From the sequence record OR296290.1: a DNA stretch of 64,000 nt, one strand, 5' to 3'. Under the pieces are notes generated by a model. That model was given only the letters and a program-made list of their open reading frames with translations. It searched no databases and was not told where the DNA came from. A program made the translations under genes and the position numbers. Shown one piece after another: positions 1-14,530 of the stretch. Source of the DNA: Escherichia phage SDYTW1-F1-2-2_3. How positions within the stretch are numbered: the first letter of the stretch is position 1; every line of letters begins with the position of its first letter.

Positions 1-372
1 TAAAGCCTTTGCTTCTTCCTCTCCTTCAAGAAGTGTTCCAGAACCAGAATGTAGATCATCGGGTCGAGAGAAGATTTCTTTAGGTATAAAAATATCTACT
101 GCTCCATCTTTATATCTACGACTCATCTCATTCCAAGAAAAACCAACTTGGTGCTTCTGTAGCTGTCGTGCAATTGCTATAGGGGCTTCGCATCTGAAAC
201 TAGCTTGTGGGTGGCGAAAAGGACTTACATGTCGTTCCCGAGCCAGGAAATTAATTAGACGGGTGTCACTCTCTTTTAGCTCCTCTCTTTCTACTCCCAT
301 GGTTACACGAGCAGCGTTGACTACTGTAAGATCAGAACCGAAGTTATCAATTAATGAAGCTTTGATTGTCAT
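1..372 (-). CDS. thyX: ThyX-like flavin-dependent thymidylate synthase, 5' part; gene continues past window start
   Basis: ATG at 372 with AAGGAGA SD. Manual translation MTIKASLIDNFGSDLTVVNAARVTMG...HVSPFRHPQASFRCEAPIAIARQLQKHQVGFSWNEMSRRY parallels the ThyX core, but the RHR motif reads KHQ. Confidence 0.6.
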   Translation of the reverse strand, partial: MTIKASLIDNFGSDLTVVNAARVTMGVEREELKESDTRLINFLARERHVSPFRHPQASFRCEAPIAIARQLQKHQVGFSWNEMSRRYKDGAVDIFIPKEIFSRPDDLHSGSGTLLEGEEEAKAL

Positions 373-838
373 TTATATAAGTCTCCTTGACTTTATTATA
401 TTCCCTAGAGGCTTCTTCTACGGTTGAGAAGAGTCCTATGTGCTTAGATTTAAATACCGCCCGGTAAGCAATAGAGCCGCTTTTTCTTCTATGAACAGTC
501 ACTCCAATTACTCCGGTTGATAGGTTATTACTCTGAGCTATTTTGTTGAGACCATTCCCTGACCTAGTAGTCCCTCTAAGGTTCTCTCTTTTATTATTCA
601 GTCTGTTGCGGTCTATGTGGTCCACTTCTTCAGGAAGTAATCCAGTGTCCCACCAGTAAGCAAGTCGATGAGCATAATACCTAACACCTTTATAAATGAT
701 TCTCAAATACCCATTGGTATTTACAGAACCAGCTATAGACCCTTTGTGTCCTTTTCCATAAGTTTTAACCCATCGGAAATCTCCAGTCAAGGGGTCGTAA
801 TCAAGAGCTTCTTTTATTGATGGGTCAATATCATTCAT
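347..838 (-). CDS. HNH homing endonuclease with AP2-type DNA-binding domain
   Basis: 163 aa; HRLAYWW...VDHIDRNRLNNKRENLR (HNH) then GVIGVTVHRRKSGSIAYRAVF (AP2-like). Last 8 codons overlap the thyX start. Confidence 0.7.
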   Translation of the reverse strand: MNDIDPSIKEALDYDPLTGDFRWVKTYGKGHKGSIAGSVNTNGYLRIIYKGVRYYAHRLAYWWDTGLLPEEVDHIDRNRLNNKRENLRGTTRSGNGLNKIAQSNNLSTGVIGVTVHRRKSGSIAYRAVFKSKHIGLFSTVEEASREYNKVKETYINDNQSFIN

Positions 839-853
839 CCGTGAATTTCCTTA

Positions 854-1063
854 TTAATATTCTTTTACATAATAAACCACTAAGGTTCCCATCTCTGACA
901 GTGTTGATTTATGTAAGCTTACTTTACTATAAATCTTTGGGGTCATCTTAAGAGCCTTCTTAAAACGGCGAGCATCTTTACGAGTAGCAAAGTGCTCTGT
1001 AACAGGTATAGCCGGGTCTTGGTAGAGGTAATATACCACCGTCCAATATTTTTTCATAATCAA
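854..1063 (-). CDS. small protein, VYY-tail paralog family (copy 1)
   Basis: 69 aa; shares W..v....TRK.AR..KK...(V/I)YY pattern with 2917-3532 copies. Confidence 0.45.
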   Translation of the reverse strand: MIMKKYWTVVYYLYQDPAIPVTEHFATRKDARRFKKALKMTPKIYSKVSLHKSTLSEMGTLVVYYVKEY

Positions 1064-1332
1064 ACACCTAGGGCAGTAGTTAAGAATGCTTTCAGGTTTG
1101 CTTCGGTCTGCATACCAGAGAGACTATAGTGTGCACCACTATTACGGTCAGGTACAACGAAAGCAGGGATGCTTCTTACACCATACTTAACAGCTTGTTC
1201 ACGACCATCACCTTCAAGGATGTTAATCTCTTCTACTTCTACATCGAACTCCTTAACAACCTTCTCAAAGGTAGGAACCATTGCTTTACATGGAGCACAC
1301 TGATCACTATAAAACTTAATCACTTTAGACAT
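1060..1332 (-). CDS. glutaredoxin/thioredoxin-fold redoxin (CAPC active site)
   Basis: Track ORF trimmed to ATG 1332 (MSKVIKFYSDQCAPCKAM...); CxxC near N-terminus followed by a redoxin-like fold pattern. Confidence 0.6.
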   Translation of the reverse strand: MSKVIKFYSDQCAPCKAMVPTFEKVVKEFDVEVEEINILEGDGREQAVKYGVRSIPAFVVPDRNSGAHYSLSGMQTEANLKAFLTTALGV

Positions 1333-1333
1333 T

Positions 1334-1510
1334 CTATTCCTTGTTAATAAACAGGTTGATATGACGTTGGGTAGCAGGAACAACAATAAAAGATTTATAC
1401 TGACCTTTTGCTAAGTCATGAGCAATCTTCTTTGTTTGACCAAGACCCATCACACAGCCACTAACGATAATGGCATGTGCTTGCAACTCTTCAGGGAGTT
1501 TTAGTTTCAT
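1334..1510 (-). CDS. hypothetical protein (58 aa)
   Basis: Below track cutoff; ATG 1510, stop 1334-1336; fills gap between flanking genes. Confidence 0.3.
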   Translation of the reverse strand: MKLKLPEELQAHAIIVSGCVMGLGQTKKIAHDLAKGQYKSFIVVPATQRHINLFINKE

Positions 1511-1522
1511 TCTTCAGGTTCC

Positions 1523-1708
1523 TTACAGCATAGCAAGAATGATAATAAGAGGTAATGTTATAGCGAAATTAATAAGAACAGCGCTGCCTAGCTTGATAGC
1601 TTTAACATCCTCTTCTGATGGGTTTTCTTTAATTGCTAAATTTCGAGCTTTATATATAACAGTACCAATTATTAACGACCACACGGCCCACACAATCAGT
1701 GAAATCAT
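1523..1708 (-). CDS. small membrane protein (paralog A)
   Basis: 61 aa, MISLIVWAVWSLIIGTVIY... two hydrophobic segments; SD AAGGG upstream. Confidence 0.45.
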   Translation of the reverse strand: MISLIVWAVWSLIIGTVIYKARNLAIKENPSEEDVKAIKLGSAVLINFAITLPLIIILAML

Positions 1709-1717
1709 ATCAAACCC

Positions 1718-1897
1718 TTATGCAGTCAGGAGGTGAAGCAGGAATGGGATAACAACAGCTACGATAACCATGATGGTTGATGCTGTTTGAATCTCACCTT
1801 TCTTGTCAGGAGTTTCTTCAATAAGCTTGCCAGAAGCCCAATAGATACCACCACCAATAAAGATAGCCCAAATACCCCATACGATTGCTGATAACAT
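1718..1897 (-). CDS. small membrane protein (paralog B)
   Basis: 59 aa manual ORF MLSAIVWGIWAIFIGGGIYW... parallels paralog A; replaces track ORF 1759-2013. Confidence 0.4.
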   Translation of the reverse strand: MLSAIVWGIWAIFIGGGIYWASGKLIEETPDKKGEIQTASTIMVIVAVVIPFLLHLLTA

Positions 1898-1958
1898 ATA
1901 TCTATATCCTTATAAATAAGTTCGCCCCACCTCGGGTTAGGAGACAGGGCGGAGGTTT

Positions 1959-2522
1959 TTAGTAAGACACATCGCCACTTGAGTGGGACATGTTGCTCTT
2001 GACGAAGTAGCAATACTTGCCAAGACCTTCATTAATTTCTTGAAGCATACTCTGATCAACTGGATAAGTGGCTAAATCACCATCAAACTCATCCATCTTC
2101 TCTATAATACACATCAAGGTCATGCACATATCAGAGAGCATACCATCCATGTCTAGGTCAGCATTACCCTCTGAGAACCAAGCATGGGAGAGATAATTGG
2201 CTGCTGTAGCATCCACTTTAACACAGTGGTAACGCATACGTTCAGCAATACGATCTCCTACTTGCCGTGCGTAATCTTCCAGCTCATCAAACATACCATG
2301 AACACCCTGAAATCCTGCACCAGAGACGTTCCAGTGGTAGTTTTTAGCTTTAATATGCAAGAGTTCCATGTTAGCTTGTAAGCAGCTCAGGATGTGTTCT
2401 AGGCTGTTTCCACTAATCATACCCTGCATCGTTTCAAGGCGAGAGATTGAAAGCTCAGACCGGTCTAACATATTATAGTCGGCACGACCGATTTCAGGTA
2501 AATCAAAGACATTCTTATGCAT
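1959..2522 (-). CDS. Dps/ferritin-like protein
   Basis: NYHWNVSGAGFQGVHGMFDELEDYARQVGDRIAERM matches Dps signature region; start moved to ATG 2522 (GGAGA SD). Confidence 0.6.
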   Translation of the reverse strand: MHKNVFDLPEIGRADYNMLDRSELSISRLETMQGMISGNSLEHILSCLQANMELLHIKAKNYHWNVSGAGFQGVHGMFDELEDYARQVGDRIAERMRYHCVKVDATAANYLSHAWFSEGNADLDMDGMLSDMCMTLMCIIEKMDEFDGDLATYPVDQSMLQEINEGLGKYCYFVKSNMSHSSGDVSY

Positions 2523-2844
2523 TTGGGTTATCTCCATCAAGTTCAACTGAATTAGCAACGTTACGTTCGATGTTTGCCATTACCTGCTGGGTAATTACGA
2601 TGCAGTTCTGTGGGTCTACTGACTTAGAACGTCCCATTTCAGGGTCATACACCTTAACTCGCTTAGCAGTTGAACCTGTGACCTGAAGAACCTTCAACAG
2701 ATATCCCTGATTACCGATAGACCAAGCAACAACATCACGATTCTTGATAAAGCGACCAAGCATATCACGATGATAAAACTGTTGCATCACCTTGGATTTT
2801 GTAATCTCTTCAGTGGGCGGGGCCACTTTACTCAAATCTAACAT
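2515..2844 (-). CDS. hypothetical protein
   Basis: 109 aa; AATGTATATA motif about 38 nt upstream of ATG. Confidence 0.5.
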   Translation of the reverse strand: MLDLSKVAPPTEEITKSKVMQQFYHRDMLGRFIKNRDVVAWSIGNQGYLLKVLQVTGSTAKRVKVYDPEMGRSKSVDPQNCIVITQQVMANIERNVANSVELDGDNPNA

Positions 2845-2916
2845 AACTCTCTCCTGTAAAATACAAATTCTTATTGTACTCTATATACATTTGAGAGTTA
2901 CCATATCTACTACCAA

Positions 2917-3126
2917 TCAGTAGTAAATTACTTTAGACATAAAAGAACCCGAGTTAGGGTCTTCGTACCAGCGATGTATATCAGCGCTTTTTACTATTGT
3001 GCCCAGAGTCTTCAACTGTTTCTTAGCAATACGAGCCTCTTTGCGAGTGTCAAACAATTTGATGCTATCTTTTCTCGTGTGTTGATCAAGATCCCAAACA
3101 ACACGAATCGCCCACATCTTTTTCAT
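2917..3126 (-). CDS. small protein, VYY-tail paralog family (copy 2)
   Basis: 69 aa, ends VIYY; tandem with next two copies. Confidence 0.5.
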   Translation of the reverse strand: MKKMWAIRVVWDLDQHTRKDSIKLFDTRKEARIAKKQLKTLGTIVKSADIHRWYEDPNSGSFMSKVIYY

Positions 3127-3335
3127 TAGTAATGTACCTTTCCGCTGATATAAACACGACCAGAAGAATACTCCTTGGCCTTATGGATACTGATACTGTT
3201 GACCACGTCACCAGTAAGCATAGTCTTTTTAAAATCTCGAGCCTGTTGACGAGTAGGAAGTGCAGTCATAGTCATACCACCTGATGCCCACTTAATCTTT
3301 GCTAACCAAAACTGTCTCATAGTGATTGGTCTCAT
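3126..3335 (-). CDS. small protein, VYY-tail paralog family (copy 3)
   Basis: 69 aa, ends KVHY; stop/start abut neighbours. Confidence 0.5.
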   Translation of the reverse strand: MRPITMRQFWLAKIKWASGGMTMTALPTRQQARDFKKTMLTGDVVNSISIHKAKEYSSGRVYISGKVHY

Positions 3336-3532
3336 TAATAATAAACCTTGCTGTTGGCAAAAAGAGCACCTTCGTTATTCACAATAGCTTTTCCTATTGT
3401 AACCTTATTGAGTCTAAAAGTAGACTTGTATTGATTTTTGACCCTACGTGCGTGATCTCGAGTCTTAACAAAATCTAAAGCTACTAACTCTCCAGTCGTG
3501 TTATCATGTACACGAACAATCCACTTTTTCAT
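3335..3532 (-). CDS. small protein, VYY-tail paralog family (copy 4)
   Basis: 65 aa, ends KVYY. Confidence 0.5.
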   Translation of the reverse strand: MKKWIVRVHDNTTGELVALDFVKTRDHARRVKNQYKSTFRLNKVTIGKAIVNNEGALFANSKVYY

Positions 3533-3735: not shown

Positions 3736-4269
3736 TTACACACCTTTAGATGCAACCACACCTTCAGAATTATTATAACGGCCTTTCACTGCATAGGAAT
3801 GTTCCCCTGCATGAGAGTGCTCAAACATAACCATCTGACCGACACGCATACCAGCACGAACTCGTAAGCTGTGGTGTTTGGTTACATTGTGGAATTCAAA
3901 CGTCAGCTTACTGCTGTTAAATCCTGCATCTGCCCATCCGGCGTGAAGGTGGTTCAAACCACAACGAGCCATAGACGAACGCAGAACAAACAGACTTGAG
4001 ATGTTATCTGGAAGATTAAACTCCTCCATGGAGTGAGCCAAGAAGAACTGACCCGGAGTGATAACCAAACCCTCTTCAGGAATCTTTACTTCCTTCCACT
4101 GAAGATTCTCTTTCGCATCAATATCAACGATGCCATCAGCCTGTTCTTCAACAAGGATAGTATCACCAATACGGATATCCACACTAGCAGCGTTAACATA
4201 CTTATGCTCCGCATCCAGATAGCCATTATCAATTACATCGTGCAGTTCAACACTTCCTAGTAAACTCAT
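3736..4269 (-). CDS. dCTP deaminase/dUTPase-fold protein
   Basis: RSSMARCGL...AGWADAGFNSSKLTFEFHN resembles dCTP deaminase signature. Confidence 0.65.
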   Translation of the reverse strand: MSLLGSVELHDVIDNGYLDAEHKYVNAASVDIRIGDTILVEEQADGIVDIDAKENLQWKEVKIPEEGLVITPGQFFLAHSMEEFNLPDNISSLFVLRSSMARCGLNHLHAGWADAGFNSSKLTFEFHNVTKHHSLRVRAGMRVGQMVMFEHSHAGEHSYAVKGRYNNSEGVVASKGV

Positions 4270-10486: not shown

Positions 10487-10700
10487 GAGGTTCTACCTTA
10501 ATGCCTTTGATTTTTACATAATCAGCAAGTACGTTATTGATCACCGTTGGGAAAGGAACCTCAACCTGTGTCTCAAGTACTTGACCAATACCAGCTTGCA
10601 TCCACTTCTGGATTGCACGAAGGTTATCACATCCTGTGCTCGTCATCGGGATACGTCGAGTAGTTACAACGTTATCCAGCATCATCTTACGAATTTCCAT
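10467..10700 (-). CDS. hypothetical small protein (77 aa)
   Basis: Immediately downstream of the GAT-II gene. Confidence 0.4.
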   Translation of the reverse strand: MEIRKMMLDNVVTTRRIPMTSTGCDNLRAIQKWMQAGIGQVLETQVEVPFPTVINNVLADYVKIKGIKVEPHVKSGS

Positions 10701-10702
10701 AC

Positions 10703-12733
10703 TTAACCTCTATTCAATGAACATTTAGGAGAATTACAATAAACTTGATTCATAGAACCAAGCGTACAACTTTCAGCATCGCGCCACGGAATCTGCTTAA
10801 AACACTCTGAGCAGTAGCCGAGGGTTGACCACATGGCTTTGGTGAAGTCAGTGCTTCGGTTTCCGTCGAAGCTGACAACAGTTTTGCGGAGAGCTGTTCG
10901 TGATTCAGGAAACACACCTGCTTTCTCAGCAGGTTCCTCCTTTTTTGGCTTAGTTGAGATTGCAAAAATACTGTTGCTACGTTTCTCAACATAAGCATCA
11001 ACAACATCCTCCAGAGTGATGCCTGTCTGTTTCGCTGAGGAAGGTAATACAGTCATACGACCGATCATATCTTCAGTTACACGTAAAGCAAACTCAGGAC
11101 GACGGGCGTTTGTTGTATCTGTTGCTTTAATCCAGACATAACCATCTTTGATCGTAGCATTAGATACCTTCTTCTTTACATCTACAGCGCAGACTTTACA
11201 GATATCTTCACCACGAAGACGACTAAGTTCTTCATCGAACTCATTCTCCGTTTTAACTTCACCGCAGATTTCACAAACACCAATAGGAGTTTCCTCCTCT
11301 TCTTCATCTTTAGGTTTAGTCAAACCTTCCAGACATTCAGGGTGCCAGTAGCATTGATATGCGAAGACTGCTTTAGGTGCATCCTTCCAATCAATGTGTT
11401 TGTCACAACCACCGCAATCACCATGAGAGTGTGCTTCCCAGAATTTACGAGTGATAGTAACGCCATTCTTGTTGACGAAACTATCATTCATATCAAAAGG
11501 GATATCATCATCGAAGTCAGCAGTAGTAGACTCAGGCTCCTTTTTCTCCAGAGATGGGTCAACAAAACGACCTGCTGTGATTACTAAACGAACCATAGCA
11601 TTAACTTCGGAGATGCAGGATACTGTCCCACGGTAAACGATTTTAGGGTCTTTCAGGGCATCCTGATAAGCCTTAATGTCTACGTTATGAACATCGCCTT
11701 CAATATACTCTTGAGACTTCTCATCGTAGATATAACCAATCATCTTACCACGAGAAGGAACAGCACCAGCTGTTGCATAAGGAACAAACTCATGTGGTGT
11801 GATTTCCACAGTCATGTCGCGGCGAATGTCAATGTTTCGATCGCTTGCGATTTTGTTTTGACTTACCACTGCGTTTCTTCGACGAACGTCTGCCGCTGTC
11901 ACTCCCGGCTTCGTGTCGTAAGGATTGCTTGTACTGCTTTTTGAGGAACTTTGATAATTGCTTTGGCTGTAGTTGTTCGAGTAGTAATTGCCCCAACGAT
12001 TGATTACCGTAAAAACCGGAAGCTCGTGGGCGACCTCTTCAACTAGAGTCATACTGTTGTTTGACATATCAAAGATATATTCTGTACCAACTTTACATTC
12101 AAAGTGCTCATCAATTCGGTTTTTGTGAGACTTAGAACGCTTCAGAATCCACATCAACATGTCTTCTTCAGAAGCACCAAACCAATCTCTGTTACAACGT
12201 GCGAGATGGAAAGGACGCTCTTCATTACGGATGATATGAAGGCGGTTATCAGAAGCATCATGCCAGATTAAGGTGAAAGCACCATCCAGCTTTTGAATAG
12301 TCTCTGCTGCACCAATAGTGTTAATAGAGTGGCAGATGTTCTCACTGTCTACCTCGAAGTTTTTGCTGTCAGGTAACAGATCTTGGTCCATCAAGGTTCC
12401 GTTATGAACCAGAGTGATGTTACCATGTTGGAAAGGATGGGCGTTCTTGGCGTTAACTGCACCTTTCGTTGCATGACGGCTGTGACCAACAATCCATGAA
12501 GGCGCTACAGTGTAAGCTGTTTCACCAGTGGTGTGTTTCTTGTACTCATCTTGAAGGATGAATGCGAAAGAAGGAAGTGCCTCTTTATAAGTGAAGACTT
12601 CCTTAGTGCTCTTACGCTGACCAAAGATACCAGAGGAATGTTGCCCTCGGAATACCCCAGCATAAAAGAGTTGGTTAAATACGTCTAAATCAGTGCTTGA
12701 CAGATTACCGCCAGCTAATACGATGCCACAAAT
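10703..12733 (-). CDS. class-II (Ntn) glutamine amidotransferase with Cys-rich C-terminal region; probable AUU start
   Basis: Frame open upstream of track start to 12736; manual translation (I)CGIVLAGGNLSSTD...GHSRHATKGAVNAKNAHPF is a GAT-II Ntn domain. No ATG/GTG/TTG precedes Cys; AGGTGG SD lies 7 nt before ATT. Confidence 0.65.
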   Translation of the reverse strand: MCGIVLAGGNLSSTDLDVFNQLFYAGVFRGQHSSGIFGQRKSTKEVFTYKEALPSFAFILQDEYKKHTTGETAYTVAPSWIVGHSRHATKGAVNAKNAHPFQHGNITLVHNGTLMDQDLLPDSKNFEVDSENICHSINTIGAAETIQKLDGAFTLIWHDASDNRLHIIRNEERPFHLARCNRDWFGASEEDMLMWILKRSKSHKNRIDEHFECKVGTEYIFDMSNNSMTLVEEVAHELPVFTVINRWGNYYSNNYSQSNYQSSSKSSTSNPYDTKPGVTAADVRRRNAVVSQNKIASDRNIDIRRDMTVEITPHEFVPYATAGAVPSRGKMIGYIYDEKSQEYIEGDVHNVDIKAYQDALKDPKIVYRGTVSCISEVNAMVRLVITAGRFVDPSLEKKEPESTTADFDDDIPFDMNDSFVNKNGVTITRKFWEAHSHGDCGGCDKHIDWKDAPKAVFAYQCYWHPECLEGLTKPKDEEEEETPIGVCEICGEVKTENEFDEELSRLRGEDICKVCAVDVKKKVSNATIKDGYVWIKATDTTNARRPEFALRVTEDMIGRMTVLPSSAKQTGITLEDVVDAYVEKRSNSIFAISTKPKKEEPAEKAGVFPESRTALRKTVVSFDGNRSTDFTKAMWSTLGYCSECFKQIPWRDAESCTLGSMNQVYCNSPKCSLNRG

Positions 12734-12812
12734 TTTCTAATCCACCTGAAGGGTAAACCCTTTCATCTAATTAACCTTTAAATTGTGCCCCTTTGCCAGA
12801 GGCACCCATTGA

Positions 12813-13916
12813 TTACAGCGCTTGCTCTAACTGATTTTCCAGATGATCTGGAATGTACCCTGTGATGTTGTTATCACTGTGTCCTGACTCACGTAGCAAG
12901 TCAAAAATAGCACGGATACGTTGCTCTGGTGCAGATCGTACAGTAGATAGATCGGTAGTACGAAGCATAACCAGAATCTCTTGGTACAAGTTGTTAGCGT
13001 TCCCTCGGACATATCCAAGGAATCCGTAGAAGTCTGAGATATGACGTAGGTCAACAAGAACTTCTCCGTTGGAGTTGGTTCGACGTAAACGAATACGACC
13101 AGACTGTTCTACTTCATGAGAACGACAATACAAAACATCACGGGCCATACAATACCCTGAATGCAAGTCCGACTCGTCCAGATTGTAATCCAGAGGAAGG
13201 TAAGGAAGCATTGGGGCAAATCGTACAGTATTTAAATGCTCGATAAACTGATCATTGCTCATCTCTGCGTTATCTAAAGCCAGCTTCTTCAACATCAAGA
13301 AGCGGTTAACCAGATTGAGAAGTTGACCACGTTTCCACTTAGGCTCACTGATACGGAACTCAATCGAACCATATTGGGCAAGTGGCAGAAGGTTCAGAGA
13401 TGTATATTTATCCCATGAACGAACCAGACGGTTGAAGAACTCTTCATCGTCGTAGTTAAATGCGTCAGAGGCATTCATTACCTGTGCTTGTACCACTGCG
13501 AAAGCAGGGCAGAAGTTGCTACGGTAACGATGGTAGCCTGAACACTTGAACAACATCTTTTCATAGAAGGTCCAAGCGAGAATGGTTTTCTTGAGGATAT
13601 TACTATCAGCATCCCTCATATCCATATGAACGTGAGTAGAGCAACGCCAAGTCCCCTCGGCGTGCGATTCAGCTACAGCTTCACTCAGGTTGTTGATAGC
13701 GTCTAACAACTCCTGTCCGTTGTAAGGTCGTGAACATACCATTTCACAACCATTACGCAGGGAACCATCCTCTGTACAATCCCACATATCTGCTTCGATA
13801 TGATCGGAACCTTCGAGTTCAAGTTCAATACCGACACCGCACTGAAGTGCAATTGAACTATGCGCCTCAGTTAAATGACCTTCTCGATATCCAAAAGTTT
13901 GCGCTACAGTTGTCAT
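12813..13916 (-). CDS. amidoligase (glutamine-synthetase-like)
   Basis: GVGIELELEG...DGSLRNGCE...CSTHVHMDMRD pattern of GS-like amidoligases. Confidence 0.6.
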   Translation of the reverse strand: MTTVAQTFGYREGHLTEAHSSIALQCGVGIELELEGSDHIEADMWDCTEDGSLRNGCEMVCSRPYNGQELLDAINNLSEAVAESHAEGTWRCSTHVHMDMRDADSNILKKTILAWTFYEKMLFKCSGYHRYRSNFCPAFAVVQAQVMNASDAFNYDDEEFFNRLVRSWDKYTSLNLLPLAQYGSIEFRISEPKWKRGQLLNLVNRFLMLKKLALDNAEMSNDQFIEHLNTVRFAPMLPYLPLDYNLDESDLHSGYCMARDVLYCRSHEVEQSGRIRLRRTNSNGEVLVDLRHISDFYGFLGYVRGNANNLYQEILVMLRTTDLSTVRSAPEQRIRAIFDLLRESGHSDNNITGYIPDHLENQLEQAL

Positions 13917-14530
13917 AATGAATCCACCAACGTAATATTGTAATTGCTAAGGTTTTCAGAAATGTGATGAAAGTGTTCCAGAAGTCGCATCGGTTGCTGA
14001 CCGTAAGAGTCACGAGGCGCTTCCAGATCTACTTGTCCTACCAGTGCACCTTTATAATGCACCTTACCATCAGTAGGGTTGATGTAAATATAACGAGTGA
14101 CCAATCCTTCGAATTCAGGATTGAACAGACTGTAAACCATCTCCCCGGAGATAGCACGACCAACACCCGGAGCATTTCGAATCTTGTTACCCATCAAACC
14201 CTTTGCTCTCTGACGAACAGGGTTAATATGAGTCCAGCTTACAGTGTTACCGTTATGGAACAGATAACCAACATCAGGTGATTCAAGAATCAAGGTTGGG
14301 TCGAACACTGGAATATTCATCGTAGTATTTCGAAGATTCCCTTGCTCGTTCTTGTACCACTGCTCTACAACAAAGTACAGAGCCTGTTCTGCTTCGTGAG
14401 AGAAGTCATCACTGCGGAAGTTACCGCTCTGCTCAACACCAATCACAAAACACGGAAGGTTGATATTACCTGCTCGTTTAGCAATCCATGTACCATTATA
14501 GTAATGAGAAAAATCAGCTACTAAGCTCAC
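13913..14530 (-). CDS. hypothetical protein (205 aa) within ligase cluster
   Basis: Track ORF, 4-nt overlap with upstream gene; no motif recognised. Confidence 0.5.
   Translation of the reverse strand: MSLVADFSHYYNGTWIAKRAGNINLPCFVIGVEQSGNFRSDDFSHEAEQALYFVVEQWYKNEQGNLRNTTMNIPVFDPTLILESPDVGYLFHNGNTVSWTHINPVRQRAKGLMGNKIRNAPGVGRAISGEMVYSLFNPEFEGLVTRYIYINPTDGKVHYKGALVGQVDLEAPRDSYGQQPMRLLEHFHHISENLSNYNITLVDSL

Follow-up and report, generated by a model that had tools for sequence, protein, structure and literature searches.

The gene examined here lies at positions 1959..2522 on the minus strand of the window, meaning the whole 64,000-nucleotide stretch of DNA that was analysed (Escherichia phage SDYTW1-F1-2-2_3, record OR296290.1), and encodes a Dps-family protein of 187 aa (21.2 kDa, pI 4.72) that is the orthologue of phiEco32 gp67. 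Its ATG is at 2522 and its stop codon at 1959-1961. The mechanically called open-reading frame reaches back to a TTG at 2558, and this start was dropped in favor of the ATG at 2522 because a GGAG sequence is found 9 nt upstream of the ATG, because the ATG overlaps the stop codon of the preceding gene, gp68, by 8 nt (ATGCATAA), and because the homologues in the alignment all begin with MH(N/K)N. The peptide NYHWNVSGAGFQGVHGMFDELEDYARQVGDRIAERM, quoted in the first-pass annotation made from the sequence alone, corresponds to residues 61-96 of this protein.

The first 8 kb of the window found matches in 99 phage records, with identities reaching 95-96%. Almost all of these records belong to Escherichia/Shigella phages of the phiEco32 type (Kuravirus, Gordonclarkvirinae), and the matches place the window in Kuravirus, as a phiEco32-like coliphage. 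Phages IMEP8 and pEC-N1203-2Af.1 have proteins in GenBank that match the window Dps at 100% identity, and the orthologues of the window Dps in phiEco32 (gp67, phi32_67, YP_001671812.1; 97.9% identical) and SU10 (gp67; 98.9% identical) are located, as in the window, behind the promoter P68 and gp68, with no difference of substance. Compared with phiEco32 and SU10, the surroundings of the gene carry two additional ORFs, one for an HNH endonuclease and one small, and a small membrane protein is present in two copies.

The Dps gene was counted as already known since it appears in the phiEco32 reference record, where phi32_67 is described as "DNA binding protein; member of the Dps family", in PHROGs, where its family is PHROG 3636, and in two descriptive papers. 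The Dps-family listing in databases dates from 2008. The 2014 paper on SU10 counted CDS67 among the few genes common to all five prolate (C3) podophages sequenced by then and identified SU10 gp67 by mass spectrometry from 6 peptides covering 35.8% of the protein (PMC4281155), while the 2021 paper on the Proteus phage Privateer noted the function of Privateer Dps as unverified (PMC7881722). Beyond these two descriptive mentions, the searchable literature yielded no study in which a phage Dps had been tested biochemically or genetically. The first-pass annotation had considered a Dps homologue unusual in a lytic phage, which is true of phages overall, where Dps is carried by 138 of 50,697 records, but not of this lineage, in which it is a known and universally conserved core gene.

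In many GenBank records of Kuravirus, including ES17, IME267, IMEP8, 172-1, DE5, EK5, E20-1, PAS59, and others, the same gene is called 'integrase', and in the case of ES17_65 (L009, 401-964) this label falls on the Dps ORF. A Pfam search with the Dps protein at E ≤ 10 gave Ferritin as the sole domain, with no integrase or recombinase domain, so that the label is plainly wrong. It could falsely flag kuraviruses, which are virulent phages and candidates for therapy, as temperate.

The neighborhood of Dps contains the genes of nucleotide metabolism that had been proposed for it, with one change of identity. A ThyX gene, cut by the edge of the window (~1..366), is 77% identical to a PF02511 ThyX, and a dCTP deaminase gene, the gp72 orthologue, is present at 3736..4269 on the minus strand (PF22769, E 3.5e-34). 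The neighbor described as glutaredoxin-like is a real gene (1060..1335, minus strand) whose product is a thioredoxin and not a glutaredoxin (PF00085, E 1.8e-12); it is the orthologue of gp65 and lies three genes downstream of the Met/Cys-rich Dps. Dps is syntenic with thioredoxin, ThyX, and dCTP deaminase in phiEco32, SU7, Privateer, 7-11, and a metagenomic relative of 81.6 kb (L005).

Several smaller genes complete the region. An HNH endonuclease gene (347..838, minus strand; PF13392, PHROG 99) and a small ORF (854..1063, minus strand) separate thioredoxin from ThyX, which are adjacent in phiEco32, and SU7 carries an HNH gene at the equivalent thioredoxin-ThyX position. The small ORF is one of four paralogous minus-strand ORFs of 65-69 aa (854..1063, 2917..3126, 3126..3335, and 3335..3532) with 23-27% pairwise identity and a common set of residues, W5, T27-R28, A31-R32, K35, and a C-terminal Y. 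Three of the four stand in tandem just upstream of P68, and the one copy scanned against PHROGs (2917..3126) belongs to PHROG 4939. Between Dps and thioredoxin, a small protein that apparently spans the membrane is encoded by a tandem pair of paralogues (1523..1708 and 1718..1897, minus strand; PHROG 9296); at this position phiEco32 has one small gene (phi32_66) and SU7 has three.

Upstream of Dps, the 11-mer AAATGTATATA (2892..2882, minus strand) precedes gp68 and matches the motif tAATGTATAtA of the phage sigma factor gp36 at 10 of 11 positions; it corresponds to the phiEco32 middle promoter P68. The gp36-dependent motif has been described upstream of gene 68 in both SU10 and phiEco32 (PMC4281155), a promoter is annotated at the equivalent position in SU7, and P68 itself has been characterised as a middle promoter used by RNA polymerase with gp36 and activated 3-fold by gp79 (PMC12276001). 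The gp68 orthologue (2515..2844, minus strand) is a basic protein of 109 aa (pI 8.8; PHROG 10984). In this layout, Dps is the second gene behind P68 and its translation is coupled to that of gp68. Eight nucleotides past the Dps stop codon is a terminator-like hairpin (1923..1951, minus strand) of 11 bp, with 7 G-C pairs, a weak U-tract, and a minimum free energy of -18.5 kcal/mol (z = -2.5). This hairpin is conserved in phiEco32 and SU7, and at its position the distant metagenomic relative has a canonical U-tract terminator.

The pairing of gp68 with Dps extends well outside Kuravirus. The window gp68 is 39% identical to Privateer gp069, which is itself directly upstream of Privateer Dps, and in the metagenomic relative gp68 is conserved at 83% identity as against 56% for Dps. 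Records with gp68 number 130, compared with 131 of the 138 Dps-carrying records that fall in the lineage, and the distribution over genera is equal. As a rule gp68 immediately precedes Dps and overlaps its start: phages of Escherichia, Aeromonas, Proteus, and Cronobacter have the two genes side by side, and in the 7-11 group 1.3-1.7 kb separates them. That the adjacency is retained at 31-45% identity speaks modestly for coupling, co-occurrence being confounded by shared ancestry. An AlphaFold2 model of gp68 is a small beta-barrel (pLDDT 66) for which Foldseek returned only non-significant SH3/PWWP/Tudor-like matches (E ≥ 0.03), and gp68 had no sequence matches in Pfam or the PDB.

The first-pass annotation had taken the product of 1959..2522 to be Dps/ferritin-like, and a profile search, which it had put forward as a check, bears this out. 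The Pfam Ferritin profile PF00210 scored 31.1 bits against a cut-off of 24.5, and PHROG 3636, a phage 'DNA binding protein' family, matched with an E value of 2.6e-55 over positions 2-149 of its 149-position profile. Matches to about 30 Dps proteins of solved structure had E values of 1e-9 to 1e-4, the best being M. smegmatis Dps2, B. subtilis MrgA, and B. anthracis Dlp-2. The AlphaFold2 monomer model (pLDDT 80) has helices A, B, C, and D with a short BC helix between the second and third, at residues 41-65, 72-98, 107-112, 125-150, and 154-176, and thus shows a four-helix bundle with a short helix in the B-C loop, the latter being typical of Dps. When this model was searched against the PDB with Foldseek, the top 50 matches were all Dps or Dps-like proteins, with a probability of 1.00 and TM-scores against the target of up to 0.91. 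The Dps assignment is confirmed far beyond chance. The NCBIfam Dps equivalogs NF006975, NF041388, and NF052461 gave 34.5, 32.2, and 17.6 bits, below their cut-offs of 114, 170, and 300, which indicates that the protein belongs to a divergent clade and is a member of the broad family, not an equivalog of cellular Dps.

An alignment with authentic E. coli Dps, taken from the dps gene in the K-12 genome record, was used to locate the ferroxidase centre, whose codons (residues 60-97) span 2232..2345 on the minus strand. The E. coli ferroxidase ligands H51, H63, D78, and E82 have as their counterparts H63, H75, D90, and E94 in the window protein, and W52, D67, and K48 have W64, D79, and K60, so the intersubunit ligands and the W52 equivalent that characterise Dps are all in place. 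Loss of these ligands together with an unsupported fold had been named as the outcome that would count against the assignment; all four ligands are present and invariant, and the fold is that of Dps. The columns of the ligands, W64, D79, and K60 are invariant in an alignment of phage relatives down to 25% identity. Among 145 representative relatives, the H, H, D, and E ligands are retained in 143-144 and W64 in 142, with variation at positions 60 and 79. The region of the CD loop keeps an acidic run (E141, D144, E145, D147, D149, and D156) that by alignment would correspond to the acidic lining of the ferritin-like pore. Comparison with phiEco32 gave a dN/dS of 0.048 for the gene, the core showing 15 synonymous changes and 0 non-synonymous ones, and comparison with SU7 gave 0.047, with synonymous sites near saturation. 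The gene is therefore under strong purifying selection (dN/dS ~0.05). By fold and by residues, the product is a genuine Dps-family mini-ferritin, with ferroxidase activity predicted.

This protein shares its fold and catalytic residues with the Dps of its E. coli host and yet is only 19% identical to it (phmmer E 0.1-0.2), which rules out a recent acquisition from that host. Among 1.84 billion cluster representatives, a profile search gave 3352 relatives at E ≤ 0.001 and only 7 at E ≤ 1e-30, and no close cellular or prophage relatives emerged when 185,579 species genomes were scanned with a pattern, only distant Dps segments at 32-48% identity. The window Dps is thus placed by these comparisons in an old, phage-restricted clade. 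The Dps proteins of the Grimontviridae prolate podophages Privateer (QIN94861) and 7-11 (AEK81988) fall in the same phage-specific clade at 41-45% identity and have the same neighbors as in the window, a gp68 homologue, thioredoxin, ThyX, and dCTP deaminase. Among the best solved matches, with E ~1e-9 and TM-scores against the target of 0.8-0.9, are M. smegmatis Dps2 (2z90/4m35), B. anthracis Dlp-2 (1jig), and Listeria innocua Dps. These non-DNA-binding mini-ferritins have the same H-H-D-E ferroxidase centre as the phage protein, and Dlp-2 and Listeria Dps likewise have no positively charged tail. The phage Dps differs from all three in being only 19-27% identical to them, in having an extra N-terminal peptide and helix, and in a Met+Cys content of 10.7%.

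This sulfur content lies within a range of 8-13% for the clade and compares with a median of 4.3% in the 145 Dps representatives and 2.4% in E. coli Dps. A D-M-C-M motif at residues 131-134, on helix C, is specific to the Kuravirus-type Dps clade. Other architectures were noted in passing: P0095 carries two Dps domains within its 777 aa, in P0128 a Dps domain is joined to DUF6321, and P0032, a predicted protein of 1156 aa, consists of ~20 tandem units of ~57 aa that weakly match the Dps helix A-B region and is probably an assembly or gene-calling artefact.

The N-terminal extension comprises residues 1-45 (codons at 2388..2522, minus strand) and was delimited by the alignment, the AlphaFold2 model, and dN/dS. 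It consists of a conserved peptide of the form MHxNxF(D/N)LP (residues 1-9), a variable linker (residues 10-24), and a helix with an invariant R28 (residues 25-37). The pLDDT is below 50 at residues 10-22, in the linker. The dN/dS of the extension is 0.13-0.16, compared to 0-0.025 for the Dps core, a value indicating that the extension is still constrained. It is kept in relatives at 52-55% identity and is missing from the shorter homologues of Privateer (154 aa) and 7-11 (146 aa), a distribution that marks the 45-aa extension as specific to its clade. A search of the other proteins of the window for a second N-terminal copy of the peptide found none, and the idea that MHxNxF(D/N)LP is a motif common to other window proteins was ruled out on this basis.

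Given the name under which the protein is listed, and the DNA-binding role that the first-pass annotation had allowed for, we considered whether this Dps might bind or condense DNA, coating phage or host DNA, possibly with gp68 as a basic adaptor. The name was carried over from E. coli Dps. To bind DNA, a Dps protein needs a mobile positive tail or a positive surface, which E. coli Dps provides with a tail of three lysines, and DNA is not bound by family members that lack such a tail, among them Listeria Dps and Dlp-1/2 (PMC1874666). In the window protein, the 45 N-terminal residues hold 4 K/R vs 7 D/E and are net negative, the C-terminal tail has no K/R at all, and the K5/K8/K10 tail of the E. 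coli protein is absent. The 'DNA-binding' label is unsupported by the sequence because the protein is acidic and has no lysine-rich tail. The adaptor variant draws on the conserved pairing of gp68 with Dps, on the basic charge of gp68, and on the weak resemblance of its small beta-barrel to DNA/RNA-binding SH3-like folds, although those fold matches are non-significant and come from a model of modest pLDDT. We conclude that the phage Dps probably does not coat DNA and regard a DNA-binding or condensing function, direct or through gp68, as quite unlikely. Of the first-pass interpretation, then, the family assignment stands, and the claims of rarity in a lytic phage and of DNA binding do not.

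The interpretation that we favor, with moderate confidence, is that Dps is a working mini-ferritin that removes Fe(II) and H2O2 during phage DNA replication, on the grounds of its intact and invariant ferroxidase centre, its purifying selection, its middle-class expression, and its thioredoxin, ThyX, and dCTP deaminase neighbors. By analogy with solved Dps proteins, twelve subunits would form a hollow cage of 23 symmetry with ferroxidase centres at the two-fold interfaces, H63 and H75 being contributed by one subunit and D90 and E94 by its partner. These centres would oxidise Fe(II), preferably with H2O2, and deposit Fe(III) inside the cage, a reaction that would remove both Fenton reactants. 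The protein would be made together with gp68 as a middle-class product, transcribed from P68 with sigma factor gp36 and activated by gp79, and the gp68-Dps unit would form the head of a block for replication and nucleotide metabolism. The role would accordingly be one of chemical protection, shielding replicating phage DNA and the dNTP-producing enzymes from iron and peroxide damage. Direct support exists for the fold, the catalytic residues, the purifying selection, the operon layout, and, through the near-identical SU10 protein, expression. Assembly into a 12-mer, activity as a ferroxidase, and the physiological role are inferred. Iron sequestration with oxidative protection is the most likely and best reading of the phage Dps. 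The gp79 protein silences host transcription by sigma-70 and sigma-S (PMC12276001), and the suggestion that the phage needs its own Dps since gp79 shuts off host transcription is weakened by phage 7-11, which retains Dps without gp79 and without host shut-off.

The gene neighborhood also bears on whether Dps could act as an iron store or donor, for the di-iron ribonucleotide reductase of the host or, in relatives, for phage NrdD and its 4Fe-4S activase NrdG, an explanation that overlaps with iron detoxification. Dps sits with thioredoxin, a reductant of ribonucleotide reductase, and with ThyX and dCTP deaminase; the metagenomic relative, whose Dps is 56% identical, has NrdD and a radical-SAM/Fer4 activase, NrdG, in its Dps gene block (10661..14292); and a fragment of NrdD lies directly downstream of Dps in Privateer. 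Kuraviruses, however, retain Dps with neither NrdD nor NrdG, none being found in the window or in phiEco32 from 24 to 52.5 kb, and dependence of the kuravirus Dps on a phage anaerobic ribonucleotide reductase is ruled out on these absences. Dps cages moreover hold few iron atoms and are generally viewed as detoxifiers, not stores. We therefore consider a donor function fairly unlikely.

The mini-ferritin role in its plain form does not account for the N-terminal peptide, for the close linkage to gp68, or for the richness in Met and Cys. The first of these features enters into a further proposal, that cages or subunits are brought to the procapsid or virion, perhaps by way of the N-terminal peptide, and are then carried along with the particle. 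Privateer Dps was among only ten proteins detected in CsCl-purified virions, and a short conserved peptide on a flexible linker resembles a docking motif. A Foldseek search against BFVD also found Dps-fold domains inside larger viral proteins named 'prohead protease', from uncultured phages and 333-763 aa in length (A0A6J7WPK9, A0A6J7XDU5, and A0A6J7WIS1), model-based matches which suggest that some phages may place a Dps domain in a head-assembly protein. Against virion association, the Dps gene is of the middle class and lies in the replication block and not in the late structural block, the N-terminal peptide is missing from Privateer Dps, and an iron-loaded cage could merely band with phage in CsCl. 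The mass-spectrometric detection of SU10 gp67 was rejected as virion evidence since the sample was only PEG-precipitated and contained polymerase and thioredoxin as well (PMC4281155). The cryo-EM study of SU10 makes no mention of Dps or gp67 in its text and supplements, and its structural-protein table, in the part available, lists gp14-24, late-gene products only. On balance, carriage of Dps in the particle appears very unlikely.

A broader version of the docking idea is that the Kuravirus-type Dps serves as a 12-valent platform on which copies of MHxNxF(D/N)LP, displayed on flexible linkers, would attach the cage to one specific partner, which could be gp68, the replisome, or the procapsid/virion. 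We offer this as a long shot that we judge improbable. Were it true, gp68-Dps would be a dedicated two-protein module of prolate podophages with a function that has no described counterpart and that might, for instance, be to protect phage DNA locally or to carry an iron cage in the virion.

The value of this analysis is in the correction of two labels, 'DNA-binding' and 'integrase', and in the experimental leads that it provides, the annotation itself being not new. The gp68-Dps pair, the N-terminal peptide, and the Met/Cys richness each offer a handle for functional work on the phage protein. As Dps is a strictly conserved core gene of this lineage, its knockout would be a cheap probe of how lytic phages handle iron and peroxide.
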